Assembly (NCBI GenBank): GCA_038840695.1
Contig: JAWBVE010000005.1
Location: forward strand, 586 to 64,585
Origin: Candidatus Pacearchaeota archaeon
Lineage (GTDB): Archaea > Nanobdellota > Nanobdellia > Pacearchaeales > JAPDKA01
DNA: 64,000 nt
Reading direction: 5' to 3'
Shown piece after piece: positions 6,315 through 26,502 of the stretch. The notes beneath the pieces are model-generated. The model saw only the letters and a program-made list of their open reading frames with translations. It made no database searches and was not told the origin of the DNA. Positions within the stretch are counted from its first letter, which is position 1. Each line of letters starts with the position of its first letter. The position numbers were made by a program, and so were the translations under genes.

Positions 6315-7952
6315 TTAATCAACCTCTTCTGGCATGCTACTTCCTTTGCTTGCACTGCTTGCTGTTCCTGTTCCCTTGCTCGCAATTACGTCATCTATTC
6401 TGAGCAGCATCATCGTAACTTCAGTGGCTGATTTTAAGGCCTGTGTTTTTATTTTTGTTGGCTCGACGATTCCAGCTTTTAATGCATCAACTATATAGCC
6501 TTCCTCTTTTCTTAAGTCAAGGCCAATATTTGGATTTTTTTCATGTCTTGCTTTTAACTCAGTTAGCACATCAATTGGATCAAGGCCTGCATTCTCTGCA
6601 AGAGTTCTTGGTATTACTTCAAGTGCATCGGCAAATGCTTCTATGGCTAGTTGCTCTCTTCCCTTAAACTTGCTTGCATATTCTCTAAGTCTCTTTGCAA
6701 GCTCTATTTCAACAGCCCCGCCACCCGGCACCACAGAACCTTCATTGAGTGCAGAGGCAATATCGCCTAAGCCATCTTTAATTGCTCTCTCAATCTCACT
6801 CGTGACATGTTCGGTGCCACCCCTAATCACAATTGTCAAAGCCTTAGGATTTTTACAGCCCGTAATATAAATAAAAGTCTCATTACCTTCCTTAACTTCC
6901 CTGACCTCTTGAGCAAAGCCTAGTTCAGCCTCACTAAGCTCCTTAATATTACTTACTATCTTTGCACCTGTTGCCTTAGCCAATTTATCCATATCACTCT
7001 TTTTTATCCTTCTCACAGCAAGAATGCCTGCTTTGGCCAAATAATACTGCGCCATATCATCAATTCCTTTTTGGCATAGCACAACATTAGCTTTGGTAGC
7101 CTTAATTCTTTCTACCATATCTTTGAGCATTGCTTCTTCCTGATCTAAAAATGCTTGAAGCTGTTCTGGGCTTGAGATTTGGATTTTTGTATCTGTTTCA
7201 GGAGCCTTAATCTCGAGAGCAGCATCGATTAATGCTATTCGAGCATTTTTAATATAACTTGGCATTGCCTCATGAACCTTTTCTTTATCAAGTAAAATGC
7301 CCCTAATTAACTCGCTATCTTCTATACCCTTTCCCTTTCTTTTTTCAAGCTTTATGTTATCAAGATCAATTATAAGCTTCTTATCTTTATACTCTGCAAC
7401 TTGCAATATAGCTTCTACAGCAAGCTCGGCAAGCTTTTCTTTTGCTATCTCAGCCCCTTTTCCAGTCATCGCAGTCATTGCTATTCTCTTTAGCAATTCT
7501 CTATCTTTCTCGCTTATTTTTATGCTAAGCTCCTTTAGTATTTCTGAAGCTTTTTCCTGTGCCTTTTGATAGCCCCTTACAATTACAGAAGGATGTATCT
7601 TTTCATCAAGTAGCTTTTCAGCATTCTCAAGCAGCTTGCCAGCAAGCACTACAGCAGTAGTTGTACCATCTCCAACCTCTGCCTCTTGCGTTTTTGCTAT
7701 TTCAACAACCATTTTTGCCGCAGGATGCTCAACATGCATTTCTTCAAGAATTGTTACGCCATCATTTGTAACTGTAACATCTCCTAAGCTATCAACGAGC
7801 ATTTTGTCCATACCCTTTGGCCCTAGAGTAGATTTAACCATATCTGCCACTATCCGAGCAGCAGCTATGTTATTGCGTTGTGCATCTCTGCCGATAAGCC
7901 GATAAACATTCTCTGGCAGCACATAAATTGGTTGTCTCTCAGTCTCCACCAT
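6315..7952 (-). CDS. ths: Thermosome subunit (group II chaperonin, Cpn60/TCP-1 family)
   Basis: 545-aa ORF with hallmark motifs [22 protein letters not shown] and VPGGGAVE, and a Gly/Ser/Met-rich C-terminal tail. Confidence 0.95.
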
Positions 7953-11251: not shown

Positions 11252-12115
11252 TTATTTTATAAAAAGTTTTGCACCTTCAAGAATTAAGAAGGAGAGAGCC
11301 ATAAGTATAAAAGAATGTTTTAAGCCAGCAAAAAGTTTGCCCTCTGAGAGTTTACTTATAACAAAGCCAGTAAAAAAGCCCTGCATAAGAATCAATGCAA
11401 GCACTAAATTATTAATAAATTCTACATCGGTTGTAGCTGGTGTTAAGCCAACTCCAAAAGCTCCAAAACCGCCAACCTGAGTGCCTGCCGCTTCCAAGCC
11501 ACTAAGCGTTGAAAGAACTGCAGGTATAAATTTGAGCTGAACAAAAACCATAATGATCAAAAAAATAAAAAAAATAATATAGCCCTGCATTACCATTCCA
11601 TGAATTGCAGCAGTTCTTTTCTTTTTTATTTCAGATATTTCCTGAACATTTACTAAAGCTGATTCGAGGATACTCTCTATTTTGCCTCCAGCGCGCTCTG
11701 CTTGGCTTATTAACTCTATGGTTCTTGCAATAATATTGCTTCTCGAATCTCTTGCAAAAGTCTCGAGAGCTTTTTTTAAAGGAATTCCTAGCATAATTTG
11801 GTTTGCAAGCTTTTTTACATGCACATCAAGAGCTTTATAATTTCTCTTTGATATGTTTAGTATGGATTTTGAGATGGGAATTCCTGTCTTGACTGATTCA
11901 TTTAAGTCTGAGACAAATTCGATGAACATTTCCTCTTTTTCTTTTTCTTTCTTTGCTCCATAAACTAAATCTATAAAAAAAGGTATGAGGCTGAGTAATA
12001 TGGCTAGTCCAAAAATAAAGAAGAATGTTTTTGTTTTTAAAAAAAAGATAAAGTCAAGGATAATTATGCCTAGCCCGACTAGTATTGCAATGTAATGTGG
12101 CTTTCTTAGTCTCAT
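11252..12115 (-). CDS. Type IV filament platform protein, single T2SS-F domain (TadB/TadC/FlaJ-like), copy 2
   Basis: 287-aa polytopic membrane ORF. N-terminal TM helices are followed by a cytoplasmic helical domain (FVSDLNESVKTGIPISKSIL...LGIPLKKALETFARDS...IELISQAERAGGKIESILE) and then C-terminal TM helices. This is the GspF/TadB/TadC repeat pattern. Confidence 0.65.
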   Translation of the reverse strand: MRLRKPHYIAILVGLGIIILDFIFFLKTKTFFFIFGLAILLSLIPFFIDLVYGAKKEKEKEEMFIEFVSDLNESVKTGIPISKSILNISKRNYKALDVHVKKLANQIMLGIPLKKALETFARDSRSNIIARTIELISQAERAGGKIESILESALVNVQEISEIKKKRTAAIHGMVMQGYIIFFIFLIIMVFVQLKFIPAVLSTLSGLEAAGTQVGGFGAFGVGLTPATTDVEFINNLVLALILMQGFFTGFVISKLSEGKLFAGLKHSFILMALSFLILEGAKLFIK

Positions 12116-12188
12116 TTTGCTCGCTTTTGCCCCTTTTCTTGCTTTTTCTTTTTTATTTTTCTTTTACTTTTCCTTTACTTTTATTTCT

Positions 12189-13169
12189 TTAAGTAGGCGG
12201 TGTTACGATTTGTAAATATATTATGAATATTATGTTGAGGAGTGCAAGAATGGCTATGCCTATTATTGAGATAATGGGCACTGTCAAGCCGGCAATTGTG
12301 CCTCCAAAAGCATTAATAAGCACTAAGACAAGCATAAAAATGAGGGGAGCTGCAATAAGCAAGCCAGTGTAGATATCAGAGTAAATGCCAGCTGACTCAG
12401 TAAATTTTTCTCGTGTTATTTTATAATCAGTTAAAGCAATTTTTGCTTGCTCCTCAAGAAATGCTTTGAGATCACCTCCAGTTACAATGTTTGTTGCTAG
12501 CCCATTAAGTATATCTTGTAGTTTTTTGTTGGCTATAATTTTGTTTGTAGCTTTTATTGCACTTACAACGTCCATGCCAAGTACATTTATTTGGTTTGTA
12601 ACCTTTTTAAGTTGCCTTGCAATGGCACTATATTCTTTTGACTCAGCAATTAAGCCGAGCACCTTTATTGGTTGTACGCCGGCAGAGGCTATAGATGCCA
12701 TATAAAGAGTTGCAAATGGCAACTCAGCTTCAATTTTTCTCTCCTCAGACTTTATTAAAATACTTGGATAAACAAAGAGAAATATAAGGATGGCAAAACT
12801 AAAAACAAAAGCTATAGCAACATTTCTTAAAACAATTGGCCAAGGTGAGCCTATTGATAAAATGCTAGCAAGAATGAGTGAAAAGATGAGTGCAAGAGAA
12901 AAAATAAAAAAAATTAAGCTTAAGTAACTTGAGGCAATCAAAGGTATGCTAGCCTTTCTTAACTTTACTTTATAACTTTCCAGCCAGGGCTTGCTTAGAA
13001 GCTTTAAAGATAGCTTTCTAAAAAGAAAATTTGCTATTTTAACAAAAGAGCTTACTTTTTCTTCTTTTATTTTTTCTTTTTCTTCCTCTTCACCAGGCTT
13101 TATTTTCTTTATTCTCTTTAACGATTCCTCCCTTATTTTTAGTTCCTCAAGCAACTCTTTTTTAACCAT
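12189..13169 (-). CDS. Type IV filament platform protein, single T2SS-F domain (TadB/TadC/FlaJ-like), copy 1
   Basis: 326-aa ORF. A charged N-terminus is followed by TM helices, a cytoplasmic helical domain (SIASAGVQPIKVLGLIAESKEYSAIARQLKKVTNQINVLGMDVVSAIKAT...TGGDLKAFLEEQAKIAL) and C-terminal TM helices. It lies directly downstream of the ATPase. Confidence 0.65.
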   Translation of the reverse strand: MVKKELLEELKIREESLKRIKKIKPGEEEEKEKIKEEKVSSFVKIANFLFRKLSLKLLSKPWLESYKVKLRKASIPLIASSYLSLIFFIFSLALIFSLILASILSIGSPWPIVLRNVAIAFVFSFAILIFLFVYPSILIKSEERKIEAELPFATLYMASIASAGVQPIKVLGLIAESKEYSAIARQLKKVTNQINVLGMDVVSAIKATNKIIANKKLQDILNGLATNIVTGGDLKAFLEEQAKIALTDYKITREKFTESAGIYSDIYTGLLIAAPLIFMLVLVLINAFGGTIAGLTVPIISIIGIAILALLNIIFIIYLQIVTPPT

Positions 13170-13213
13170 TTTTAACTCTTAACCATTCAACCATTTTAGC
13201 TTTTTAACCTTAG

Positions 13214-14779
13214 TTATTTCAAAAATTCGGCTATCACAGCCTTTGGATTTTTGTAATATCTGTTTATTATTTTTTGCACTTCATAAAAATCAAATATCTT
13301 TCTTTTGTAAAGCTCATACAAAAGCCTTGTTCTTACTTTAAATTCATTCTCTATCTCTTCACTACTCAAACCGAATCTATCCTTGATTTTTTCAAAAACT
13401 TTTATTTTTGTTTTATAATAAAATTTGTCCTCTGCAGGATCCCAGAAAAATGGAGTATTCGTTGTGGCTGTGCCATCTTCAGCTACTTCAATTATTTCAG
13501 TAATTTTCCCAAGCCTCCTCGTTTCTTGACCACCTACTAAAGCATGCTGCATTATTGCTATTGCATCAAGTACATTTAACAAAGTAGGGCTTAGGCTTAT
13601 TGGTGGTGTTTGAAGCCTCTTTATGACTGCCTCAACACTATCAGCGTGAATTGTGCTTAAGCTTGGATGCCCTGATGCCATGCCCTGAAAAAGCACAAAA
13701 GCCTCTTTTCCTCTAACCTCTCCAACGATAACATAATCTGGCCTTTGTCTAAAGCTCTCTTTGAGTAAAGTAAAAAGATCTATCTCCTCAGCTCCTCCCA
13801 AGCCAGTCCTAGCTACACTTGGAAGCCAGTTCTCTCTCGGTATATTTAACTCTCTCGTATCCTCTATGCTCACTACCCTCGCTTCTGGCGGGATGAAAAA
13901 AGTTATTGCATTTAACAAGCTTGTTTTACCACTTCCTGTACCCCCAGCAATAAGCAAATTCATTTTATATTGAATTAAAAGCCAAAAATATGCCATCATT
14001 TCAGGACTTACTGTTTTAAAGCTGATAAGCTGTATCGGGCTCCAAGGAATTTTTGTAAATTTTCTTATTGTGAATGTTGGCCCTTTTGTTGTTATCTCTG
14101 TTGTGTATGTTGCATTCACACGCGAGCCATCAGGTAAAGTGCCATCTAGCAAGGGATTAGCATAGCTAATATATTTTCCACATCGCTGAGCCAATTTTTC
14201 AACAAGACTTGCAAGATATTCCATGTCATAGAAAATAAGTGTAGTGCGCAAATTTCTATAGATACGATGCACTACATAGACTGAGCTATTAATACCATTA
14301 CACTCTATATCCTCTATAAAATAATCTCTTAACAGTGGCTCTATTTCATTCAAGCCAATAAAATCTCTATAGATATAGTAAAAGAGCTTGCTGTAGCTTT
14401 TTTCTGGAATTGTTAGAGAAAGTTCATCAGCAATAAGCTTGATTGCTTTATCAATATAGTCAAGAATTTCCTCTTGTGTTTTTTCGCTTAGATAGCTTAT
14501 ATTTATAACTTCCTGAAGAGCATCTCTTATTAGCTTTAGTATCTTTCTTTCCTGCTCATTTAAGAGTGGCTCTTCAATTTCATAAACAAGCTCTGAGGCC
14601 TTCGCGTCCCAGTAAATATGGGCATAGGCATAAGGACTAATTAGTGGATATCTTACATTTACCTTTGTTTTGTCCTCAATTTTTTTAATGGGAGGTATTG
14701 GCGGATTTAGATTGATTGAAGGATATGATTTTGTCATTTTGCTTATTTGACAATTTCGATTTACAATTTTGCCTTTCAC
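13214..14779 (-). CDS. Type IV filament/secretion ATPase (FlaI/PilB/TadA, GspE superfamily)
   Basis: 521-aa ORF. Walker A LIAGGTGSGKTSLLNA, Asp box VSIEDTRELN, Walker B-region RQRPDYVIVGEVRGKEA and His box GHPSLSTIHA. The N-terminal domain length is typical of archaeal FlaI-like ATPases. Confidence 0.88.
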   Translation of the reverse strand: MKGKIVNRNCQISKMTKSYPSINLNPPIPPIKKIEDKTKVNVRYPLISPYAYAHIYWDAKASELVYEIEEPLLNEQERKILKLIRDALQEVINISYLSEKTQEEILDYIDKAIKLIADELSLTIPEKSYSKLFYYIYRDFIGLNEIEPLLRDYFIEDIECNGINSSVYVVHRIYRNLRTTLIFYDMEYLASLVEKLAQRCGKYISYANPLLDGTLPDGSRVNATYTTEITTKGPTFTIRKFTKIPWSPIQLISFKTVSPEMMAYFWLLIQYKMNLLIAGGTGSGKTSLLNAITFFIPPEARVVSIEDTRELNIPRENWLPSVARTGLGGAEEIDLFTLLKESFRQRPDYVIVGEVRGKEAFVLFQGMASGHPSLSTIHADSVEAVIKRLQTPPISLSPTLLNVLDAIAIMQHALVGGQETRRLGKITEIIEVAEDGTATTNTPFFWDPAEDKFYYKTKIKVFEKIKDRFGLSSEEIENEFKVRTRLLYELYKRKIFDFYEVQKIINRYYKNPKAVIAEFLK

Positions 14780-14834
14780 AATTTTGCCTCTTTTAATTAA
14801 TAAAAAATCACGCTTTTTTAAGCCTTTTTAAATG

Positions 14835-15431
14835 CTATGCAGAAATGAGAATTGTATTGTTAACACTGCCGAGAGGGGTTCCAAAATTTTTTATGCTTAT
14901 TTTATATGGCGTAGGAGCTTGAGTTAGTATAAGCTCATTGCCCTCACCATCAATAGCTGTTGTTATGTTTATTGGCTCAGTATAATTTAAAAAAAGCTTT
15001 GTTATAAATCGGCCGGCTTCTTGTGTTGTAATAAGATTGACTGTTCCGACGCTGATTAGTTGATTTAGCTCAGAAAATTTGAAATTAGTGCCAAGTTGCC
15101 ATTCAACTTTATCCTCTTGAGGCTTTATCCGAAGCTCGCCCTTGGCTATCTTTAGCTCGAAAAGCCTGGCAGAGCCTGGCATTTCATTAACATCAAGAAT
15201 AAGTCCATTTAAGCTATTAAGAGCATTTATCATATAATTGATTGTATATCTATCTTTTGCTTCTTCTATTTTTGGCCTTGTTGCAATGAGAAGAGCTGAG
15301 ATCACAGCAAGCCCTATCAAAATATAGATAACAGTTGATATCCAGATATCAGCTCTTTCTGCTTTCTCTTTTATTTTTTCTATTTTTTCTTTTACTTTTT
15401 TTTCTTTAACTTTTCCCGTTTTTCTTAACAT
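14835..15431 (-). CDS. Pilin-like or pilus accessory protein with class III-like N-terminus
   Basis: 198-aa ORF. A K/E-rich leader is followed by ERA|DIWISTVIYILIGLAVISALLIA and then a soluble beta-rich-looking domain. Confidence 0.5.
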   Translation of the reverse strand: MLRKTGKVKEKKVKEKIEKIKEKAERADIWISTVIYILIGLAVISALLIATRPKIEEAKDRYTINYMINALNSLNGLILDVNEMPGSARLFELKIAKGELRIKPQEDKVEWQLGTNFKFSELNQLISVGTVNLITTQEAGRFITKLFLNYTEPINITTAIDGEGNELILTQAPTPYKISIKNFGTPLGSVNNTILISA

Positions 15432-15631
15432 CTTTTTATTTTTTTATTTTGCCTTCCCTTCCTTCTTTCTCCCTCCTTCTTTTTTCTCCTTTTTTCCTAT
15501 TTTATCCTCTCTCCCTTCTAACTCCTACTTTCTCACTTCTCTTCTTCTCCTCACTTCTCTCCACTTCCGCTTCTCCTTTTCTTCCCACACTTCCTTACTG
15601 CTCCCTTTTACTCATCCCCTTTTACCCCCTT
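15432..15631 (-). repeat. 200-nt polypurine (sense, minus strand) / polypyrimidine (plus strand) spacer between two pilin-like genes
   Basis: The plus strand reads almost only C/T (ctttttatttttttattttgccttcccttccttctttctccctcc...). It fills the whole gap between the stop of 15632..16123 and the start of 14835..15431. Confidence 0.9.
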
Positions 15632-16123
15632 CTACTCACAAGTTCTAAGCACTACACTAGACTTCAAATTTTCGCATGTTATATCCTGAGTTCCGGCCCT
15701 AATTACAGGCACTACTTCAGCTCTCTCTACTCTCATTGGAGCACTAAAGTAGTATGTATTTGACTCGCCAGGACGTGGAATTGCCGGAGTCGTTGTTTCG
15801 TTGATCTCATATACTCTAGTTTTTCCTTCCCCACTCAGCATTACTTTTATTTTACTTAATGTGAACTGAGTAAGTGGTCTTTGTATTTGTATGAGTGTTA
15901 GGTTATCTGGGCTACTTGCATTAAAACAAGTATAGCCCTCTTCCAATATAGTAAGCTGCCTATCAAAGCTGCACTCCTTTGATGTTCCTATTCCTTTCTG
16001 TATAAGCGGCAAAATTGCCCCCCATATTATGCCTATCGCAGCTATCGTTATTAAAACAAGCAGTACAGTAGCCACTAAAGCCGATACACCTCTTTTTCCA
16101 CTTTTTTCAATTATTTTTTTCAT
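15632..16123 (-). CDS. Archaeal type IV pilin-like protein (class III signal peptide, DUF361-type N-terminus)
   Basis: 163-aa ORF. MKKIIEKSGKRG|VSALVATVLLVLITIAAIGIIWGAIL is a close match to the archaeal pilin/archaellin N-terminal consensus (basic-G/A | xSxV(I/V)ATVLL(I/V)xIT(I/V)). Confidence 0.8.
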   Translation of the reverse strand: MKKIIEKSGKRGVSALVATVLLVLITIAAIGIIWGAILPLIQKGIGTSKECSFDRQLTILEEGYTCFNASSPDNLTLIQIQRPLTQFTLSKIKVMLSGEGKTRVYEINETTTPAIPRPGESNTYYFSAPMRVERAEVVPVIRAGTQDITCENLKSSVVLRTCE

Positions 16124-16156
16124 TTTTATTTTGTTTTTTACTTATGCTTATTTTTG

Positions 16157-16675
16157 CTATAAGTATTTTATTTGAACTTTATCTTCACACGCATAAAGGT
16201 AAGCATTCTTGCTTTTAACTCCCTCGCCGAGCAATAGTGGAATTATTTCAAGTTTTTGTATGCTCTGAGGGCTTTGGCTTTCCATAATAATTCCAGTAGC
16301 ACCTGGCTCAAGAGCGCTCTCATCAGGATTTATGAAGTAATCCTTAATTTCTGAACGGCCTTCGTAAATATACTTAACTCTGATCTTATAAATTCTGACA
16401 TTGCCAGTGTTTGTTACAGTAAAATTTATTCCAGTTCCTTGGCCGACATCAACATCAAAGCCAACATTTGTGCATGCCTGCTCAATTGGGCTTCCGAACT
16501 TTGTGATTTGTTCAGCCACAAAGCTCCTGCTCCATATAAAAACAATTGCAAAAAGTGCAAGACTAATGCCAATTAAGCCGACTGTTGCAACAACAGGCTC
16601 AATAGCTTTTTTTGCCTTGCCTTTCTTACCTTTTCTTCCCTCTTTTTCTTGCATCTTAAAATAATTTTTAAGCAT
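16157..16675 (-). CDS. Archaeal type IV pilin-like protein (class III signal peptide, DUF361-type N-terminus)
   Basis: 172-aa ORF. ...GKAKKA|IEPVVATVGLIGISLALFAIVFIW has the same archaeal pilin N-terminal pattern. The true start may be the internal Met at 16654 (MQEKEG...). Confidence 0.7.
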   Translation of the reverse strand: MLKNYFKMQEKEGRKGKKGKAKKAIEPVVATVGLIGISLALFAIVFIWSRSFVAEQITKFGSPIEQACTNVGFDVDVGQGTGINFTVTNTGNVRIYKIRVKYIYEGRSEIKDYFINPDESALEPGATGIIMESQSPQSIQKLEIIPLLLGEGVKSKNAYLYACEDKVQIKYL

Positions 16676-16816: not shown

Positions 16817-18664
16817 TTGGCAAAGATGAAACACATGAAAACGTTGCAAACACCACATACAAAAGCAACAAAAGCACAAAAAGCGCAAATAACGCTTTTT
16901 GTTATAATTGCGCTTGTAGTTATTGTGGCTGGAATAGCAGGCTATTTTTTAATAAAGCCAAGAGGCCCGAAGCTGCCACCTGATATTAAAGAGATTGAAA
17001 ACAGCTATGTTAGCTGTCTTGCTGATTTGACAAAACAAGCCATTGAGCTTGCAGAGCAGCGAGGAGGCTATATATATGAGCTCGAGCAAACTCAAGAGGG
17101 CCTTTATTTTAGCAATGCTCTCGATTTTATGGGTGAGAGAATAGCTTATTGGTTTTATTATGACTCGAGTGGCAAGCCAATTGAACAAGTTCCGAGCTTA
17201 AGCTTTATTGAAAGCCAGATAGCAAGATATGTAATGGAACATATTGAGCTATGTGATGATGTGTTAAGAGCAAGCGGGATAAGCTTTGAAAAAAAGCCTG
17301 TGAGGATTGAGATAGCAATAGGCAAAAAAGTTGAGGGAAAGGCACTGATTGATTTAAAGCTAAGCAAGCAAAATGCAACCTATCTGATTAGAGAGCATAG
17401 CTTTACTCTAGACTCTGAGCTAAAACAACTTTATGAAACAGCGCGAGCAATTTATGATTATGAAAGCTCAAGTCGTTTTCTTGAGAACTACACTCTTGAT
17501 GTTTTGACACTTTATGCCCCAACAACGGGCTTTGAGCTTCAATGCATGCCTTTAACTTTTGAAAAAGAAAAAATAAAGAAGGACATAATTGATGGCCTAA
17601 CTGTAAATCTTGAAAGGATAAAGTTTGCCGGTGATTACTTCAGTCTTGCGAGCGAGGAGAATAAATATTATGTCAATGATGTAAAAATTCCAAATGGCAT
17701 ATACGTTAATATTCTTGGCCCACTGAAGCCAATAAAGATAGAGATTTATGGCGATGAAAGAAATGGCATTTTTAAGTTTGATCCAATAGGTAAACAGCCA
17801 GGCTTAGCTATGTTAAATTCAATTGGCTTTTGCTATGTACCATATCATTTTGTCTATGATATAAAATATCCATTATTGATTGAAGTTAGTGGCAAAAAAG
17901 AGCTATTTAAGTTTCCAATCACTGTTGTGCTAGAGAGAAATGGTGTCAAAGAAATGCTCACTGAAGGCGAGAGCGTATCAGCAAGAATATGCAATAGCGC
18001 AATCACAGAAGCAATAATAAATGTATATGACGAGAGCGGCAAGCCGCTAGATGCTGAGTTGTATTTTAAGTGCTTAGATGCTGTCTGCTATCTTGGCAAG
18101 GCCGAGCAGGGCTATTTAGAAGCTAAAGTGCCAGAATGTGTTAATGGCTTTCTTATTGCGAGCTTAGATGGCTATGCACAAGAAAGCTTACAGCTTGATA
18201 GCACGCACAACTTTATTGGCACTCTTTTCCTAAGCCCTCTTTATTCAGTTAAGCTAGAGCTAAATTTAAGAAGCGATGAAAGCGCATTAATACTTTTCGA
18301 GGGCAAGACAACAGCATCAATAAATTATCCTGAACAAAAAGAAGTCAAGCTTGCTGAGGGCAGCTATGAGGTTAGTGTCTATGTCTTTAAACAAAAAAGT
18401 CTGAGCATAGTAAATAAGAGCGAGCTTTGCTATGATGTGCCGGTCTTTTTTGGCATGACAAGAAAGCAATGCGTTGAGCTAGAAGGGATGAGCTTTGATA
18501 ATGTAGTGGTTGGTGGAGGCAAGACAAGCATTGAGCTTAGCGAGGAAATGCTGGCTAGAGGAAAACTCAGAATTGATTTTGAACGCTTTAGTGAGCCGAG
18601 AGAAATTTCTGATCTAGAAACCAATTACGAGCTTGTCGATGCCAGTGAGCTAAAAATAAGTTAG
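16817..18664 (+). CDS. Hypothetical 615-aa N-terminally anchored extracellular protein (possible pilin-like N-terminus)
   Basis: The track start is a TTG at 16817, and an ATG at 16826 follows the SD-like gagggtgag. N-terminus ...KATKAQKAQ ITLFVIIALVVIVAGIAGYFLI is a basic leader plus one hydrophobic helix. The rest has no domain I recognise. It is divergent from the pilin operon and upstream of the giant gene. Confidence 0.6.
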   Translation: MAKMKHMKTLQTPHTKATKAQKAQITLFVIIALVVIVAGIAGYFLIKPRGPKLPPDIKEIENSYVSCLADLTKQAIELAEQRGGYIYELEQTQEGLYFSNALDFMGERIAYWFYYDSSGKPIEQVPSLSFIESQIARYVMEHIELCDDVLRASGISFEKKPVRIEIAIGKKVEGKALIDLKLSKQNATYLIREHSFTLDSELKQLYETARAIYDYESSSRFLENYTLDVLTLYAPTTGFELQCMPLTFEKEKIKKDIIDGLTVNLERIKFAGDYFSLASEENKYYVNDVKIPNGIYVNILGPLKPIKIEIYGDERNGIFKFDPIGKQPGLAMLNSIGFCYVPYHFVYDIKYPLLIEVSGKKELFKFPITVVLERNGVKEMLTEGESVSARICNSAITEAIINVYDESGKPLDAELYFKCLDAVCYLGKAEQGYLEAKVPECVNGFLIASLDGYAQESLQLDSTHNFIGTLFLSPLYSVKLELNLRSDESALILFEGKTTASINYPEQKEVKLAEGSYEVSVYVFKQKSLSIVNKSELCYDVPVFFGMTRKQCVELEGMSFDNVVVGGGKTSIELSEEMLARGKLRIDFERFSEPREISDLETNYELVDASELKIS

Positions 18665-18717: not shown

Positions 18718-21700
18718 ATGAAAGACAAAAAAGAAGCAAAACAGTTAATTGCAATTGCAATCAGCCTAATTTCAGTGCTCCTGCTAATCGATCTTGCGGG
18801 AGCGCAGAGCTACTATACTTTCAATCCAAATCAGATTTATGGAGAAGAGTACAACACGCTTTTTCCAGGCGGCATCGGAGCTTATTGTAATACAACGCAA
18901 AATTTTCTAGTTTATGTTGATCCGCTCGAGGGCTGCCAGCCAGCTGTTGTTAGATCTGATCTGCTGGAAGAGCAGCCTGTGAATGTCTTCTGCAAGCTAA
19001 AGACAATAAATCTCAATCCTTTGCTTCAAAGTATATACATAAAGAATGTTAATATAAAAGTGGAAAATAAGAGTGACATTGTTAGAGGTGCAACTTTTCA
19101 TTTGCCTTATATCGGCGAGAGGCCACTTGTTAATGCCTTTAAGCCAGGCTTTAAATCTGGAATTGCTTATTGGGACAATTTAGGCTATGCAGTCATTATG
19201 CTAAAGCCAGAGCCAATCGAGAGAAAAATTCCTGAGCGAGCAGACGTTAATGCATCAATCGAGATAAGATATACAGCAAGCTATCTTTTTGGTATAGAGA
19301 AGAATACTTTTGATTTGCCAAAACTTAGTGATGCCGAATTTAGAGCAAGATACAATCAATTTAGTTTTTTTAATGGCAAGGGCTTTATAAGGGCTGTTGA
19401 TATAAGGCCGGAAAGTGCTGATGTGCTCGTCTATAAAGACTCCCCAAATGATCCAACGCCAATTCGTGTTACATTGCCTAAAAGAAAGCCGGTGCCCATT
19501 GGCTTCTGGGGCTTTTTCTGTGACAATCAAAATTTCGAACTTGAGCTAATTTCTTCTGAGCTTCCTGTAACAAAGGCAAGGCTAGTAATAAATAATGAAG
19601 AGTTCTTGCTTGGTAGGCTTGAGAAGGAGGCTGGATGTGAAGTGTTGAGTATAGATGAAGGCATTTTTGGAGGAGGTAAAGTTAGGCTTGAGTGTGGTGG
19701 CGAGCTCGTCGAGCTTGAGCTATTGCCTCTTTCAGTGCATCTAGTTAAGGATAATGTTGAGTATGTTTATGGCCTTGGCGAAAGTTTCATAATTGAGGAA
19801 CAAAAAAAACAAGAGCAAGAAACAGAGCAAGCGCAGCAAAAAAGGCAAGAAGCGCCAGAATCGCAAGAAAAGAAGGCAAGGATTGCTTATGTTATTTATG
19901 CTGATAAACGCAAGAAAGAAGCCTTGTTTGCTATTTCTGATGTACCTTTGCAAAATGAAATTATAGAAGAAATAGTAAAGATTGCAATTGATAAGAGCGG
20001 CGTTAAAAATAATGTTACGGCTGAAATAGCTTCAAGAAAGATAAAAGTTGACATAGTGCAGGCAAGCGAGAAAGGATATAAAGTTATTGATGTTGCAGGA
20101 GTTATTAATGTGCCTCTTGACCAAGAAACAGAAAGTTATTATCAAGAGGCAAGGAATAAGTATGAAGAGCTATTTTTTAAATATAAAGATGAAAAGGATG
20201 AAAGTGGTGAGTATATAGGGGCAAGGGCACTCTACTTACTTGCAGAGCTTGCAGGAAAAATTGGCAAAAATGCTGACAAAGCTCAAATCCTAAAAAAGCT
20301 TGTTGATAGCTATAGTGGCACTGATTCAGGACTTGTAAGTAAGGCTATGGCAGAGTTAAAATCAGTTTCCTATTATGATGGCGAAAAAGCAACAGCAAGC
20401 ATTTCAACTCCTGAAGGAATTTTTGTTGTTCAGCTTAAAGCCATCGAAGCGCCGAGAAGTGATGCAATATATGCAAGGCTAAAAGTGAATGGCATAGAAG
20501 GCAAGTATAGCTTAAAAAGTGATTTGGGTGAAGGTTGGATAATAAGTCAGATAGAGGAAAGAGGAATAAAGATAAAGAAATTTAATTATAGCTTAGGCTC
20601 TGTAACCAATGAAATTTATTTAGCTGTTGGCGAGAAAGAAAGACTCAGCGAGAAGCTTGAGATTGAACTTCTCGAGACAAAGCTTGAGAGAGTGGCTAGA
20701 GTTGTTGTTAGGCCTCCTGCTCTTGAGTTTGTTGCTGAATCCAATTTTTCTATACACATAGGAATAGAAAAGCGTGCAATTCAAATAGGCACTGAGAAAA
20801 CAAAAGAGTATATAAAAAAGCTTAATAGAACAATTGCAACATTGCAATCTATTAATGATAAGTTAACAAGCTTAATTAAAGGATGGAAAAAGGCATGCTA
20901 CATAGGTGGAACTGCACTATTCCTAAAAAATTTCTTGCAGGGGCTTGGTGGCAAGGCAACTGCGAGGCGGCTTGCGATGAGGGGCTTTGATGGCAAGGCT
21001 GGTTGGACTGAGTGGTGCAGGCAGCAAGTTAGCAATAAAGCTTATAGAAGCATAAGTCAATGTTTAAGAGAGAATTCAAAAGAAATAGAGAAGGATGTTA
21101 ACAAAATAAGCTCTAACCTCAAAACCATAAATAGCCAAATAAATGCTGCAAACAATGCTTGCAAAGATAAGAAGGGGCAAGAGGCAAATGAATGTTTCTT
21201 TAAGCAACTTAAATTTAATAAAATAGAGTGTGGAGGAGCACAAGCGCAAGAAAAAGAAAAATGCGAGAAAGCAAATAACTTTATTGCAAACATATCAAAG
21301 CTTGCAAATTCAGGGCTATATTATAAAGAGAATGCAAAAGATCTTTTGCTTCAACTTAACTTAATTGAATGTGTTGACTGCTCTGATACAATAAAGCAAC
21401 AAGCGCGAGAGAAGCTTTATGCTGATGCAAACTTTTATTTAAAACTTGCAGAACCAACAGCCTCTCTTGCTCAAGAGCATCTTATCTTTGCTGGTTCTCT
21501 CGGCAAATCAATAGAGCTTGTGCCTCAAACAGTGCAATGGACAACACTAATTGGGAAGCAGGAGGATAGTCTGCGAGTGAATAATGGAGGAGGAACAATC
21601 CAGAAGGGCACAGAATACTTTATAGCTGACATAGCTGGCTTGGGCTTGCATTATTTTGTCATAGGCCGTGAGCCAGGAAATATTCCTGTCATAAAAGAGG

Positions 21701-24700
21701 TTTATAAGTATGAAATTAAGAAGGGGGAAGCTACACTGTCAACGCCAGAAGCTTGCAATCAAATAGCTAAAGAACTTGGAAAGAATGATTGCTTGAATTA
21801 TCTTAGAGAAAAGCTAAGGATTGTTGAGAGCGAGTGTGGCATGGCAATAAAGCAGCAATTTTTGAGAGCAGAATTCTATGAGAGTGGGCAATGGAGAGGA
21901 AAGCTAGCTTATATGCCTCTCAACAGGCTCGAGCCAGGCCTTTATGTCTATATTCCTGACGAGTTCAAAGTTAAGAGCTATCTCGAGAACGGCATGCTCA
22001 ATGTCTTTTGGATATGCGACGCAGGAGCAAACGGCATTCCTGACCTAGCTCTTTATAAGCAGCCAGGAGATGATAGCTGCTTTAGAATAGACATAGAGGC
22101 AGGATGGCAGGCTTTAGGGAATAGCATAATATGCCAGGAAATGCCACAGCTAAGGCTCGGCAACATCATTCAACAAGTTCAGAGCTGTGTTGCAGATGCA
22201 AACAGACAAAAGCGCGAGGGAAGGCCTGTAATTAGCACGAGTTGCAATGGTGCTATTAAAGTGGAGAAAGCAGTAAATATACCTTCTGTGCAATGTGAGG
22301 ACTTTATGTCAAGCAAGGACTGCTGGCTTCTCTTTAATTTGTGTGATCCTGTGCTTTGCCCTCCTTCAAGATGTGATCTCGGCGGGAGATATCCAACAGA
22401 GAATGTTGTGGCTAGCGGCATCATAGGAAGCTTAGTTCTATGCTTGCCTAATTTCGAAGGAGGCAAAGGAACTCTTGTGCCATTTTGCTTAACAGGCATC
22501 AATGCTGGCTTGGATGGCTTGATAAGTATACTAAAGGCTAGTCAGGATTGTTTAAATGAAAGCTTGGCAAGTGGCAGAACAGTAGGCATATGTGATCAAA
22601 TTAGGAGCATATATCTTTGTGAGTTTATGTGGCGTGAGCTCATGCCTTTCATAAAAATTGGAATTCCATCAATTTTAGAGCGCATAGAAAGGAAGGGAGG
22701 AGGAGAATATGCGCTTTTTGCAGATACATGGAGAAGAACAACTGATAGCTTCAATTATTTTGTTCAGTATTATGGCACTACTGCAATTGAGGCATTTAAA
22801 ATAAGGAGCACTGCTGAGGTTGGCTCAATGCTATGTAAACGCTTTATAGGCTTAAGATATCCTAGCGTAGCAAGCTTGCTTGAGGAACTTGCTAAGCCAG
22901 AAAGTCCTTATCAGTTTTTTGCCACAGTCACAGAGCTTCCATATACAGAAGTAACAGCACCACCACAAAGCCACTACAAAGTTTACTATCATATCTATGC
23001 TGGCAAGGATCAAGGAGTTTATTATAGCGTTTATTTAAAAAGCCCAACAGTATACCCTGGCTATTATAGCCCTGAACAATATATAGTTGATACTGGATTT
23101 ATTCCAAGAGGCGATCAAAAGGATGTTAGCAAGGACTTTACGGCTCAGGCAGGCTATAAAGAAATTTGTGTTAATATAAATGCTAAAGAATATTGTGGCT
23201 TTAATGTTGTGACACAGAGCTTTGCTGCAAATTGGTTACAGGATAAATACTTAGAAAGTCAGCTAATGAATGTTACAAAAGCCAGTGAATGCACTGCAGG
23301 TAGACCAAGTTTGATACCAACTGCAAGCATATTAAATTTGCAAGCTGGCATAACGCAAGCATTGGAGCCAGCTATATATAAACAGGGAATAGTTAGAATG
23401 TGCTCAAGCAAGAATCCTGGCATAGGCGTTGAAGAAGCCTCTTGGGCACCTGTTGGCTATTGTGATAGTCCAGAAATAAAATGCTGGGTTTATATGCCAA
23501 GCATAAGCCAAGCCATAAAGGATGTTGGCTTTGTAAATCAGACAATAAAAAGTCTTGATGAGGCAAGGCGGCTTGAGCAGGCAAAAGCGATATTTGGCAA
23601 GGAAACAGAATTTATGAAAGCAGAGCAAATCGCAAGCTTTGCCGAAGCTCTTGACAAAAAAATTGGAGAGAATGATAAGATAATAAGCGAAATTGAGGAC
23701 GCGATCAGTGCAAGCAATGAGAAGAGAGTAGGAGAGCTAACCAAAGCCTTAAGCGAAAACAAAAAGCTAGACGAGCTCAAAGCCTTTATTAATGAAAAAG
23801 AAAGGCAGCTCATCTTAATTCTAGACCCCGAGTCACTGAAAAAAATAGAAATCAAGCTTGCTCAGCTCTTTGGCCAGCTCACCTTGCTAAAGTACTATGA
23901 AAAAAATGCGGCTAAGCTGGTTGAAAAGAGGATAGAAGAGGAGAGGGAGAGGGAGGGGAAGAAGGAGGGGGGAGAGAAAAAGGAGGAAGAGGAGATAGAA
24001 GAAGGAGAAAAGGGTAAAGTAAAACTAAAACCACTAGAAGAAAAGCCCCCTACCCCTAAAGTTGAAAAGAAGGAGGTAGTGAAATTAGGCCTACCTACGG
24101 TGAGAGAGAAGATTAAAAGTTGTAGTATTAGGAAAAAAGGAGCAAGAATAGAATTTACTTTCAACGAATCAATCGAGATAAAAGCGCTCATAGGAGGCAA
24201 TGTTACTAAAATAGCTACTCTTGGTAAAGATGAAGTAGAAGTTAAGAGTGAAGTAATAACAAAAATGGAAGCTGAAAGCAAGGTTATTTTAATTGAATAC
24301 GGCAAACTAGACAAAGCCAACGATAGCATAAAAGGAGAGCAGAGCATAAAAGAGGGAACAGTAATTGGAAAAAGCAAGCAGCTTTATTTAACATTGATGG
24401 AAGGAAAAGTAGAATGGAGTGAGCTACTTACAGAGGAGACATGGAATTACATAGAAAGAGGATGTCAGGCATTCGAAGCGCTTCTTTTCGTTGGAAAACC
24501 TGGTAGCCCTTATTCACGTCAAGGCCAGACAATTGAATATAATGATACCGAAACTGAAATTTGTCTGGTTTTTTTTGATCCAAAAACACAAATTTATTAT
24601 AATAATAAATCCATCTCTATAGAACCGCATTTATGGAGTGCCGCAAAACCAATTTCTACAGAAGTTTTACCTTATAGCATAACCATAACTTGGGAAGTGA

Positions 24701-25650
24701 TTTTACCAGTATTAAGGAAACCAACTCCAATTTTGTTTAAAAACTTTTATAAAGCAAGAAATATGAGTAAGGGACCAGATAGCCATTGGATAAAAATTAA
24801 CAATACTTATTATGAAATTATTGAATATAAGCATGAAGAGATGAATAAGAATAATAATCAATGGTGCATAAAACCTATAAATGAGAGTAGTGGGACATTC
24901 TGGTATAGGGCTCTTGGAACAATTATTATTAATGATAAAGAATACCATTTTAATACAGGCCCATATTTCGCAGATGAAAAGAATGATTGGAAAGGCCTAA
25001 TTTCTTCAGTTTATTTGAAGAATTTTTTAAGCAAGAGCGACTATTACAAAATTGAACCAGAACAAAATTGTGGAGGGGATATTTGCGCAGGCTTGTTAAC
25101 CATAGATCCGTCTAAGGCAATGCGAGTAAGCAGGAAATCTAATTTTTCAAATGAGCATCCAGAATTGTGCAAAAATAACAAAATTGGCTGTAAGCTCATA
25201 GAAACTGCAGAAAGCTTTTACAATGTGCCATATGTTTTCAGACATCCTCGAACAATATGCCCAGTGAATAGTGGGCACTATATTGCAAGTGATTTTATTG
25301 TAAGTGATTTAGGCTTAGCCGCAGATTGTGGAACTTTAGTAAAATCTGTTTTAGAGATGAATAATATTAAAAAAGTTACTGAGTTTGTTAGGGATACATG
25401 GAAAAATTTGCAATCAATGTCAATTGCGAATGGAATTTATGTAGGAGACATATTTGAAATACCACATGGAGCAGCATTTGTTTATAATGATAGTGATAAT
25501 GATCCAGGCACAATAAAACCTAACGATAAGCTTTTAGCTATGAGCAAAGAGTATGGTACTGTAGCAACCAAAGAAATAGAAGACATTGAATTTATTAAAA
25601 ATGAGACTACTGTAACCATATCGACTGCCAGAAATATTAAAAAACAATAA
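18718..25650 (+). CDS. Giant secreted, modular Cys-rich surface protein (2310 aa) with a C-terminal papain-like (NlpC/P60-like) module
   Basis: Single uninterrupted 6.9-kb ORF. Signal peptide MKDKKEAKQLIAIAISLISVLLLIDLAGA|QS. E/Q-rich linker (~19795-19880). Cys-rich core ~20890-23490 (e.g. CWLLFNLCDPVLCPPSRC, ECVDC). Coiled-coil/charged stretch ~23550-24110. Degenerate LytM-like segment ~24120-24410. AT-rich C-terminal region with PYVF...ADCGTLV...GDIFEIPHGAAFVY (Cys2204/His2250). Confidence 0.85.
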   Translation: MKDKKEAKQLIAIAISLISVLLLIDLAGAQSYYTFNPNQIYGEEYNTLFPGGIGAYCNTTQNFLVYVDPLEGCQPAVVRSDLLEEQPVNVFCKLKTINLNPLLQSIYIKNVNIKVENKSDIVRGATFHLPYIGERPLVNAFKPGFKSGIAYWDNLGYAVIMLKPEPIERKIPERADVNASIEIRYTASYLFGIEKNTFDLPKLSDAEFRARYNQFSFFNGKGFIRAVDIRPESADVLVYKDSPNDPTPIRVTLPKRKPVPIGFWGFFCDNQNFELELISSELPVTKARLVINNEEFLLGRLEKEAGCEVLSIDEGIFGGGKVRLECGGELVELELLPLSVHLVKDNVEYVYGLGESFIIEEQKKQEQETEQAQQKRQEAPESQEKKARIAYVIYADKRKKEALFAISDVPLQNEIIEEIVKIAIDKSGVKNNVTAEIASRKIKVDIVQASEKGYKVIDVAGVINVPLDQETESYYQEARNKYEELFFKYKDEKDESGEYIGARALYLLAELAGKIGKNADKAQILKKLVDSYSGTDSGLVSKAMAELKSVSYYDGEKATASISTPEGIFVVQLKAIEAPRSDAIYARLKVNGIEGKYSLKSDLGEGWIISQIEERGIKIKKFNYSLGSVTNEIYLAVGEKERLSEKLEIELLETKLERVARVVVRPPALEFVAESNFSIHIGIEKRAIQIGTEKTKEYIKKLNRTIATLQSINDKLTSLIKGWKKACYIGGTALFLKNFLQGLGGKATARRLAMRGFDGKAGWTEWCRQQVSNKAYRSISQCLRENSKEIEKDVNKISSNLKTINSQINAANNACKDKKGQEANECFFKQLKFNKIECGGAQAQEKEKCEKANNFIANISKLANSGLYYKENAKDLLLQLNLIECVDCSDTIKQQAREKLYADANFYLKLAEPTASLAQEHLIFAGSLGKSIELVPQTVQWTTLIGKQEDSLRVNNGGGTIQKGTEYFIADIAGLGLHYFVIGREPGNIPVIKEVYKYEIKKGEATLSTPEACNQIAKELGKNDCLNYLREKLRIVESECGMAIKQQFLRAEFYESGQWRGKLAYMPLNRLEPGLYVYIPDEFKVKSYLENGMLNVFWICDAGANGIPDLALYKQPGDDSCFRIDIEAGWQALGNSIICQEMPQLRLGNIIQQVQSCVADANRQKREGRPVISTSCNGAIKVEKAVNIPSVQCEDFMSSKDCWLLFNLCDPVLCPPSRCDLGGRYPTENVVASGIIGSLVLCLPNFEGGKGTLVPFCLTGINAGLDGLISILKASQDCLNESLASGRTVGICDQIRSIYLCEFMWRELMPFIKIGIPSILERIERKGGGEYALFADTWRRTTDSFNYFVQYYGTTAIEAFKIRSTAEVGSMLCKRFIGLRYPSVASLLEELAKPESPYQFFATVTELPYTEVTAPPQSHYKVYYHIYAGKDQGVYYSVYLKSPTVYPGYYSPEQYIVDTGFIPRGDQKDVSKDFTAQAGYKEICVNINAKEYCGFNVVTQSFAANWLQDKYLESQLMNVTKASECTAGRPSLIPTASILNLQAGITQALEPAIYKQGIVRMCSSKNPGIGVEEASWAPVGYCDSPEIKCWVYMPSISQAIKDVGFVNQTIKSLDEARRLEQAKAIFGKETEFMKAEQIASFAEALDKKIGENDKIISEIEDAISASNEKRVGELTKALSENKKLDELKAFINEKERQLILILDPESLKKIEIKLAQLFGQLTLLKYYEKNAAKLVEKRIEEEREREGKKEGGEKKEEEEIEEGEKGKVKLKPLEEKPPTPKVEKKEVVKLGLPTVREKIKSCSIRKKGARIEFTFNESIEIKALIGGNVTKIATLGKDEVEVKSEVITKMEAESKVILIEYGKLDKANDSIKGEQSIKEGTVIGKSKQLYLTLMEGKVEWSELLTEETWNYIERGCQAFEALLFVGKPGSPYSRQGQTIEYNDTETEICLVFFDPKTQIYYNNKSISIEPHLWSAAKPISTEVLPYSITITWEVILPVLRKPTPILFKNFYKARNMSKGPDSHWIKINNTYYEIIEYKHEEMNKNNNQWCIKPINESSGTFWYRALGTIIINDKEYHFNTGPYFADEKNDWKGLISSVYLKNFLSKSDYYKIEPEQNCGGDICAGLLTIDPSKAMRVSRKSNFSNEHPELCKNNKIGCKLIETAESFYNVPYVFRHPRTICPVNSGHYIASDFIVSDLGLAADCGTLVKSVLEMNNIKKVTEFVRDTWKNLQSMSIANGIYVGDIFEIPHGAAFVYNDSDNDPGTIKPNDKLLAMSKEYGTVATKEIEDIEFIKNETTVTISTARNIKKQ

Positions 25651-26325: not shown

Positions 26326-26418
26326 ATTTTAGTATATTTTTACCCTTTAAAAACTTTTCGGTTGTAACTACTTATAAGTTAACATAAGAAAAAGCTGTCT
26401 TTGCGCTTTGCTTTGCAG

Positions 26419-26502
26419 TGCGGGGAAGAGGATTCGAACCTCTGAAGGCACTAAGCCAGCAGGTCTTGAGCCTGCCCCGTTTGTCCACTCCGGCATCCCC
26501 GC
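26419..26502 (-). tRNA. tRNA-Leu (anticodon CAA), class II with long variable arm
   Basis: Reverse complement GCGGGGATGCCGGAGTGGACAAACGGGGCAGGCTCAAGACCTGCTGGCTTAGTGCCTTCAGAGGTTCGAATCCTCTTCCCCGCA. Acceptor stem GCGGGGA/TCCCCGC, anticodon stem GCAGG/CCTGC with loop CTCAAGA, variable arm stem GGC/GCC, and T arm AGAGG-TTCGAAT-CCTCT. Confidence 0.92.

Follow-up and report, generated by a model that had tools for sequence, protein, structure and literature searches.

A divergent NlpC/P60-like domain with an invariant cysteine and a variable histidine position at the C-terminus of a giant protein of a Candidatus Pacearchaeota archaeon

Background

The peptidoglycan endopeptidases of the NlpC/P60 family (PF00877), such as MepS/Spr, MepH and NlpC of Escherichia coli, RipA/B/C of Mycobacterium tuberculosis and a number of phage tail and lysin domains, have the canonical signatures DCSG and GD and catalytic triads of the type Cys-His-His or Cys-His-Glu (PMC12067865). 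Here we analyse a candidate relative of this family, the C-terminal domain ("domain B") of a giant protein of 2310 amino acids. The protein is encoded in a stretch of 64,000 nucleotides (nt) from a Candidatus Pacearchaeota archaeon (contig JAWBVE010000005.1 of assembly GCA_038840695.1, positions 586 to 64,585), which we call the window. A sequence-only reading of the window had proposed, by eye, a papain-like Cys-His module of NlpC/P60 or transglutaminase type within nt 25180-25560. From the comparisons described below, we regard domain B as a domain of the NlpC/P60 type, presumably with a papain fold, that has diverged strongly, is restricted to one lineage and has kept the signatures and the putative nucleophile Cys. 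On the same alignments, the constraint on the catalytic His and on the third triad position appears to be lost across the family, and an acidic loop appears to have been gained in the hairpin that follows. Domain B is an unannotated divergent relative of a known domain, and not a new kind of system.

The likeness to the NlpC/P60 endopeptidases lies in the order and spacing of the motifs, that is, a helix, PY, D-C-x-G at the start of a helix, and then the GD strand. The Cys of domain B aligns with the catalytic Cys, and in the window protein a His stands at the canonical place; furthermore, domain B is predicted to be extracytoplasmic and is combined with other modules of the wall-hydrolase type. 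On the other hand, the His is present in only three of 15 domain-B sequences, the third triad residue is replaced by Ala, Ser or Tyr, and domain B has a long variable insert between PY and Cys as well as an acidic loop of 13 residues in the His hairpin. It is also found only at the C-terminus of the giant protein, in one archaeal clade.

An altered triad has been described within the NlpC/P60 family. According to the passage of PMC12067865 that cites Both et al. 2014, RipD (Rv1566c) of M. tuberculosis has an altered triad and binds peptidoglycan without having peptidase activity. As described there, RipD is an NlpC/P60-derived domain that has been retained for wall binding despite its altered triad, which makes it the strongest precedent for domain B as a binding module. 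The difference is that the triad residues are altered in RipD, whereas domain B keeps its Cys strictly and only the His and the third position drift.

Domain B can also be compared with the C39-like domain of HlyB and the C39 domain of PCAT transporters (3zua, 6mpz), which are small papain-fold domains as well. However, the respective Foldseek matches are not significant (E-values 0.015-0.1, TM-scores 0.24-0.34), the motifs differ, and C39 is the cytoplasmic N-terminal part of ATP-binding cassette (ABC) exporters, whereas domain B would be the extracellular C-terminus of a surface protein. We have therefore rejected a membership of domain B in the C39 or C39-like group, given the lack of a significant match and the different context. 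Still, the C39-like domain of HlyB is degenerate, non-proteolytic and substrate-binding, and it gives a precedent for a papain fold that has been re-used in binding.

The pseudomurein endoisopeptidases PeiW and PeiP and the transglutaminase-like Cys-His-Asp enzymes fall within the wide papain-like fold class, and they attack wall isopeptides with a Cys nucleophile. The sequence-only reading had drawn a link from domain B to these enzymes, and this link found no support: domain B has no match to Transglut_core or a related Pfam family, no homolog on the viral contigs searched and, in the alignment of its relatives, no conserved His.

Archaeal proteins with wall hydrolase modules of bacterial type, similar to those that we see in the family of the giant protein, have been described before, and M23-type peptidoglycan hydrolases are recorded in Nanoarchaeia genomes (PMC12352652). 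Giant proteins with wall hydrolase modules are also found among the cell-wall-degrading proteins of predatory bacteria, as the preprint bioRxiv 10.1101/2023.11.21.568195 presents them. As described in these sources, both groups have catalytic and wall-binding domains that Pfam recognises; domain B, in contrast, is not recognised by Pfam and its triad is incomplete.

Results and discussion

Similarity of domain B to NlpC/P60 domains

Domain B covers residues 2118-2310 (about 190 amino acids, nt 25069..25647) of the giant protein, whose open reading frame (ORF) extends over 18718..25650; the ORF and all of its parts given below lie on the + strand. The core of the domain is 25180-25560, and the peptide quoted for these positions in the sequence-only reading is indeed their exact translation, in frame in the giant ORF.

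We compared a profile of 15 domain-B sequences (residues 2118-2310) with a reference profile of 13 NlpC/P60 sequences, consisting of E. coli MepS, MepH and NlpC and of ten phage domains picked across the tblastn ranking. Both profiles are shallow (effective number of sequences, Neff, about 3-4). Using hhalign, the two profiles were aligned over 79 columns with a probability of 92.8%, P = 4.1e-7 and a score of 48.3. In comparison, 150 column-shuffled templates gave a mean score of 12.2 (standard deviation, sd, 2.4) and reached at most 19.4; for the reversed alignment the score was 12.3. When single templates were ranked among 91 real E. coli ORFs, MepS came first and NlpC third. Thus, the likeness that had been noticed by eye goes beyond chance, and the profiles align in the same register as had been proposed.

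The confident part of the alignment consists of the first helix, the PY motif, the Cys motif together with its helix, and the GD strand. In this register, the first helices are matched; the invariant VPYV (residues 2170-2173, nt 25225..25236) stands opposite PY.GG; the sequence AADCG, with the invariant Cys2204 (nt 25327..25329), stands opposite DCSG, so that Cys2204 aligns with the catalytic Cys; and the VGD that contains the invariant Gly2243-Asp2244 (nt 25444..25449) stands opposite the strand GDLVFF. With permissive settings, hhalign places the canonical His directly before GAAFVY and the third residue opposite LLAMS. Note that an earlier hhalign comparison, which was based on three E. coli paralogs and an alignment of nine sequences, was weak (probability 15%, P = 0.0018), and that the result became convincing only with the deeper profiles. 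In summary, the comparison supports a homology between domain B and NlpC/P60 at the level of profiles, with the signature motifs in register.

Among the sequences of the reference profile there is one phage homolog (L020, contig MT835480.1, 58768-59208) in which Asn replaces the catalytic Cys and Phe the His; judging from these substitutions, it appears to be a phage pseudo-enzyme.

Conservation of the catalytic positions

All conservation counts given here refer to the alignment of 15 domain-B sequences, in which some columns are covered by fewer sequences. The candidate residues of the sequence-only reading, Cys2204 at nt 25327-25329 and His2250 at nt 25465-25467, are located where it had put them and are 46 residues apart. 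Their conservation is very different. Cys2204 is found in all 15 sequences, preceded by Asp or Glu in 14 of them, and since it also aligns with the catalytic Cys of DCSG, it stands as a candidate for the nucleophile. His2250 occupies the canonical position of the catalytic His, in the turn before GAAFVYN, but only the window protein, P0001 and L004 have it (3/15). Over the 15 sequences, its column (HHHDRLRKKNFIQVA) reads H, H, H, D, R, L, R, K, K, N, F, I, Q, V, A. The residue even varies freely (D/R/L/R/K/K) within one clade whose sequences are otherwise nearly alike across the aligned domain. The conservation of the pair, on which the earlier claim of a papain-like enzyme had been staked, is therefore found for the Cys and is missing for the His.

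The sequence-only reading had also suggested that the Asn and Asp residues that follow the His might supply the third catalytic position. We rejected this candidate: the residues form a hairpin loop bracketed by Asp2258 and Asp2270, off the canonical third position, which is taken by Ala2274 in the window protein and by Ala, Ser or Tyr across the family. On the strand that follows, domain B thus has no polar residue (His, Glu, Asn or Gln) that could complete the triad at this position. Judging from the alignment, canonical Cys-His catalysis is not a conserved property of the domain-B family.

The loop itself (DSDNDPGTIKPND, 13 residues, nt 25489..25527) is acidic and rich in Asp and Asn, and each of the two flanking Asp residues is present in 14 of the 14 sequences. 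The relaxed pattern D-x-[DNSG]-x-[DNSGP]-x(2,3)-[LIVMF]-x(3)-D is found in 13 of 14 sequences, and the strict EF-hand pattern PS00018 (PROSITE) in none of the 14. The loop is probably a cation-binding site, possibly for Ca2+, rather than the source of a third catalytic residue.

Several other positions of domain B are invariant, namely R2139-K2140-S2141, C2151, C2158, I2161, E2165-S2166, V2170-P-Y-V2173, G2243-D2244, D2258, D2270 and G2280. The first of these, Arg2139-Lys2140-Ser2141 (nt 25132..25140), belongs to the conserved motif RISRKSNF on the N-terminal side of the first helix. Additional Cys residues come in co-varying pairs (C2118/C2123, C2151/C2158 and further pairs specific to single clades), and the number of Cys residues in domain B is odd in most lineages. 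This pairing leaves, in most lineages, Cys2204 as the one invariant Cys without a partner. Sequences of the window subclade contain a further Cys, Cys2181, in the variable loop ahead of Cys2204, and the total number of Cys residues is even in the complete orthologs (50 in the window protein, 48 in P0001 and 78 in P0003).

Predicted structure

Using nine more diverse sequences as the input alignment, the best AlphaFold2 model of domain B had a predicted local distance difference test score (pLDDT) of 66.9 and a predicted template modelling score (pTM) of 0.67. In the model, a helix at positions 38-48 is followed by a low-confidence loop (54-87), a second helix (89-97) and then six strands. Cys2204 corresponds to position 87 of the model, two residues ahead of the second helix, and His2250 to position 133, in the turn that precedes the strand 134-140 (GAAFVYN).

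We compared this model with known structures by Foldseek, in view of the papain-like fold postulated in the sequence-only reading. More than 30 of the top 50 PDB matches are papain-fold cysteine peptidases, although all of these matches are non-significant; they include C39, UfSP, a papain-like toxin, NlpC1, ubiquitin-specific proteases (USPs), Josephin, calpain and staphopain. The best PDB match is 3zua, the C39-like domain (E = 0.015, TM-score 0.27-0.34), and the weak viral matches include NlpC/P60 entries. The evidence from the predicted fold is consistent with the papain-like class, but of moderate strength.

Distribution of domain B and scans of family libraries

A full HMMER scan of 1.84 billion representative sequences returned seven relatives, and a profile search returned three further ones. 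Six additional loci came from genome and metagenome contigs, among them L011, which encodes the relative P0006 itself. The nearest genome loci are L004, from a metagenome-assembled genome (MAG) of 'Candidatus Pacearchaeota', and L005, from an unclassified archaeon; this points to a tiny, symbiotic archaeon of the DPANN group as the source of the window. Nearly all of these homologs are the C-termini of one giant protein family from Pacearchaeota-like archaea; P0007 is the exception. We found no homologs on the viral contigs that were searched, and a word-indexed search of 5.8 billion proteins with the C-terminus found nothing. By searching the literature, we found no description of this protein family.

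Pfam gave no match either for the whole giant protein or for its last 249 residues (E <= 1), and none for nine domain-B sequences, those of the window protein and eight relatives (E <= 10), so that no recurrent family was seen. The gathering score of PF00877 (clan Peptidase_CA) is not reached by domain B, which is below detection for the Pfam model. NCBIfam and PHROGs, the latter scanned member by member, have no match to domain B. A phmmer search of PDB sequences with the C-terminus gave nothing; the domain-B family profile had a single match there, to an uncharacterised protein (E = 0.08) that looks GGDEF-like by eye, and we consider it to be spurious.

Wall-hydrolase modules in the protein family

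We asked which other modules occur in the C-terminal part of this protein family. In the ortholog P0003 (2834 amino acids, locus L005) there is a Pfam Peptidase_M23 domain (57.4 bits) in which the ligand motifs HxxxD and HxH are visible, and a sub-threshold module of Amidase_6, which is in the clan of NlpC/P60. The two modules cover residues 1778-1894 and 2235-2359 (about 7373-7723 and about 8740-9120 of L005) and lie between the coiled-coil linker and the beta-rich domain A, which precedes domain B. We also considered that domain B is a duplicate of this Amidase_6-like module and dropped the idea, as hhalign gave only a match of 15 columns (P = 0.039). The partial protein P0032, from a Nanoarchaeota archaeon and related to the giant protein through its conserved core, has a C-terminal Pfam SLT lytic transglycosylase domain (residues 483-604, 50.9 bits), which, by its family assignment, is a third class of murein hydrolase on this protein family.

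In the window protein, the best Pfam match of residues 1812-1887 (nt 24151..24378) is Peptidase_M23 (E = 0.029, 15 bits versus a cut-off of 28.7). This segment is specific to this ortholog and lies in the same C-terminal part, from the core to domain A, as the true M23 domain of P0003. On the other hand, the M23 ligands HxxxD and HxH are absent from residues 1812-1887, and a BLASTP comparison of residues 1735-1934 with the M23 domain of P0003 was not significant. The segment may be a degenerate LytM-like domain.

In summary, the C-terminal end of the family repeatedly hosts wall-hydrolase modules of bacterial type, in which the catalytic residues are preserved to a varying degree. The true M23 and SLT domains of its relatives make a cell-wall target plausible for the giant protein.

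Possible functions of domain B

We lean towards a role of domain B as a recognition or attachment module, possibly with participation of the thiol. The old active-site groove would have turned into a recognition or attachment site for a ligand resembling a stem peptide, on the envelope of a partner cell, and the conserved thiol would join in the binding or in some non-canonical chemistry. The partner would probably be a cell that bears peptidoglycan, since M23, SLT and an Amidase_6-like module are found at this end of the protein in relatives. SLT acts on the murein glycan rather than on pseudomurein and, judging from SLT and M23 in the relatives, the target is probably peptidoglycan rather than pseudomurein. 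The lytic effector role assumed in the sequence-only reading is plausible from this context.

A number of observations speak against a purely recognising or binding NlpC/P60-type domain, or weaken the assignment on which this role is built. No curated family model and no sequence with a solved structure recognises domain B, and Foldseek searches of PDB and BFVD returned nothing significant (best E = 0.015, TM-score at most 0.39). With six close sequences, AlphaFold2 reached a pLDDT of only 33.5; with the more diverse alignment, only one of the five models exceeded a pLDDT of 50, and in the loop ahead of Cys2204 (residues 2171-2204) the pLDDT is below 50. The confident region of the hhalign alignment stops just short of the His strand. 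Furthermore, NlpC/P60 pseudo-enzymes usually lose the Cys as well; as the Cys is invariant in domain B, the thiol likely retains some chemistry, which does not fit pure binding. In the window protein the His stands at the canonical place, so that a working enzyme is possible. Finally, since Cys2181 is present and the Cys counts are even, a disulfide between Cys2181 and Cys2204 is possible in the window subclade; Cys2204 could then be a structural residue or a redox switch.

The canonical position of the His raises the question whether domain B is an active papain-fold amidase or endopeptidase with a Cys-His (plus Asp/Asn) site, located at the tip of the giant protein and cutting peptide or isopeptide bonds in the wall of a host or prey cell. 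We regard this as rather unlikely for domain B. It is true that the Cys is invariant, that the window protein and its two nearest relatives have Cys2204 and His2250 at the places where NlpC/P60 enzymes canonically have their Cys and His, that the M23 (P0003, with HxxxD and HxH) and SLT domains of relatives look intact, and that a Cys-His dyad can suffice in papain-fold enzymes. However, the His is missing in 12 of 15 sequences and varies (D/R/L/R/K/K) within one close clade, the canonical third residue is Ala, and the run of Asp and Asn is more readily understood as a loop that two invariant Asp residues enclose; moreover, no curated model recognises domain B, and Cys2204 may be paired with Cys2181, as the even Cys counts allow. 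For the window subclade taken by itself, a residual or regained amidase or peptidase activity of the Cys2204-His2250 dyad is possible but doubtful, and it would not be a property of the family. The contrast between a Cys that is kept in 15 of 15 sequences and an unconstrained His column could also mean that the Cys works independently of the His, in a papain-fold variant with a new way of catalysis or of covalent capture; for example, the thiol might form an adduct with a wall component, or the base might be provided by His2147, Glu2165 or Asp2203. That Cys2204 alone is both invariant and unpaired in most lineages would fit such a variant, and so would the other invariant polar residues (R2139, K2140, S2141, E2165, S2166 and Y2172) and His2147, which is found in 10 of the 12 sequences aligned at its column. 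Yet the Cys2204 loop is modelled with low confidence, and His2147 is replaced by Asn in P0003 and by Tyr in L010 and falls in a gap in L009; altogether we hold this variant to be improbable. Even less credible to us is that the NlpC/P60 likeness is convergent or spurious and that domain B is an unrelated, lineage-specific fold with a structural Cys. The lack of any significant Pfam, PDB or Foldseek match, the shallow profiles (Neff about 3-4) and the moderate model quality would agree with this, but the hhalign score lies about 15 sd above the shuffled null, three separate signature motifs come in the right order and spacing, MepS ranks first in the null made of real sequences, and the weak Foldseek matches are overwhelmingly to papain folds.

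A wider scheme can be drawn from the His-independent variant. Domain B would be a papain-fold module with an invariant Cys and no need of the His, which by thiol capture or non-canonical catalysis fastens the giant protein onto the peptidoglycan of a bacterial partner or nicks it, and wall-attacking modules (M23, SLT, Amidase_6-like and domain B) would be exchanged at the C-terminus. We give little credence to this scheme as a whole. If it were true, it would imply bacterial, and not archaeal, hosts or prey for this clade of the Pacearchaeota type. To our knowledge, the hosts and the attachment machinery of DPANN archaea of the Pacearchaeota/Nanoarchaeota type are essentially unknown.

In this giant, conserved surface protein, the presumed distal end is built from descendants of wall hydrolases of bacterial type, namely the NlpC/P60-like domain B and the possible degenerate M23 segment. 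Whether such a tip binds or cuts peptidoglycan is a testable handle on the question of interactions between these archaea and bacteria. Since the domain-B family is missing from Pfam, NCBIfam, PHROGs and PDB, it is invisible to standard annotation. It also illustrates how, in nature, a papain-fold domain can retain its putative nucleophile while the His drifts.

The giant protein and its gene surroundings

The giant ORF (2310 codons) is real, because exactly the same protein is found on the NCBI MAG GCA_038818895.1 and in an independent Logan assembly, and because there are full-length orthologs, P0001/L004 (2081-2090 amino acids) and P0003/L005 (2834-2843 amino acids), with 34-58% identity. 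At its N-terminus there is one hydrophobic segment (residues 10-28, nt 18745-18801), and the prediction is for a protein that is either secreted or anchored by this end. Taken together with the 50 Cys residues, this segment suggests an extracytoplasmic protein with the C-terminus as its distal end.

The layout is shared within the family: a Cys-rich core is followed by a coiled coil, a linker rich in Lys, Glu and Pro, domain A and domain B. The conserved core (22255..23637, for example CDPVLCPPSRCDLGGRYP) has 25 relatives by a search with the core, and four of these have a named source, which is Pacearchaeota, Nanoarchaeota or a TARA ocean metagenome. None of the 25 has a Pfam domain in the core. 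The coiled coil and the low-complexity linker (23815..24087) part the core from the C-terminal modules, as they also do in L008, L009 and L011. Domain A is a conserved beta-rich domain of about 170 amino acids (residues ~1938-2105, nt 24529..25032) with the motifs TIEYxD, ITWEVI, YEIIEY and GTxWYRA, for which no family match was found. It is always N-terminal of domain B; in P0007 it is present without domain B, behind a different N-terminal region.

Directly upstream of the giant gene there is an ORF of 615 amino acids (16817..18664, + strand) with one N-terminal transmembrane segment. An ORF of about 600 amino acids is found in this place in three genomes (16817-18664 in the window, 2502-4298 in L004 and 256-2058 in L005), and it forms a conserved two-gene cassette with the giant gene. 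The upstream ORF has no match in Pfam.

A cluster similar to those of type IV pili lies divergent from the cassette (11252-16675, - strand). It contains two T2SSF genes, a T2SSE ATPase gene (13214-14779) and three small pilin-like ORFs, one of which has a weak match to the archaeal Pilin_N (E = 0.054). On the other side of the giant gene, ARAGORN predicts a tRNA-Leu(CAA) of 85 nt (26418-26502, - strand), which has no match to the Rfam tRNA model at the gathering threshold. The window is archaeal by its gene content, which includes thermosome, FttA, aEF-2, GatE, TFB and SRP54, and its G+C content is about 36%.

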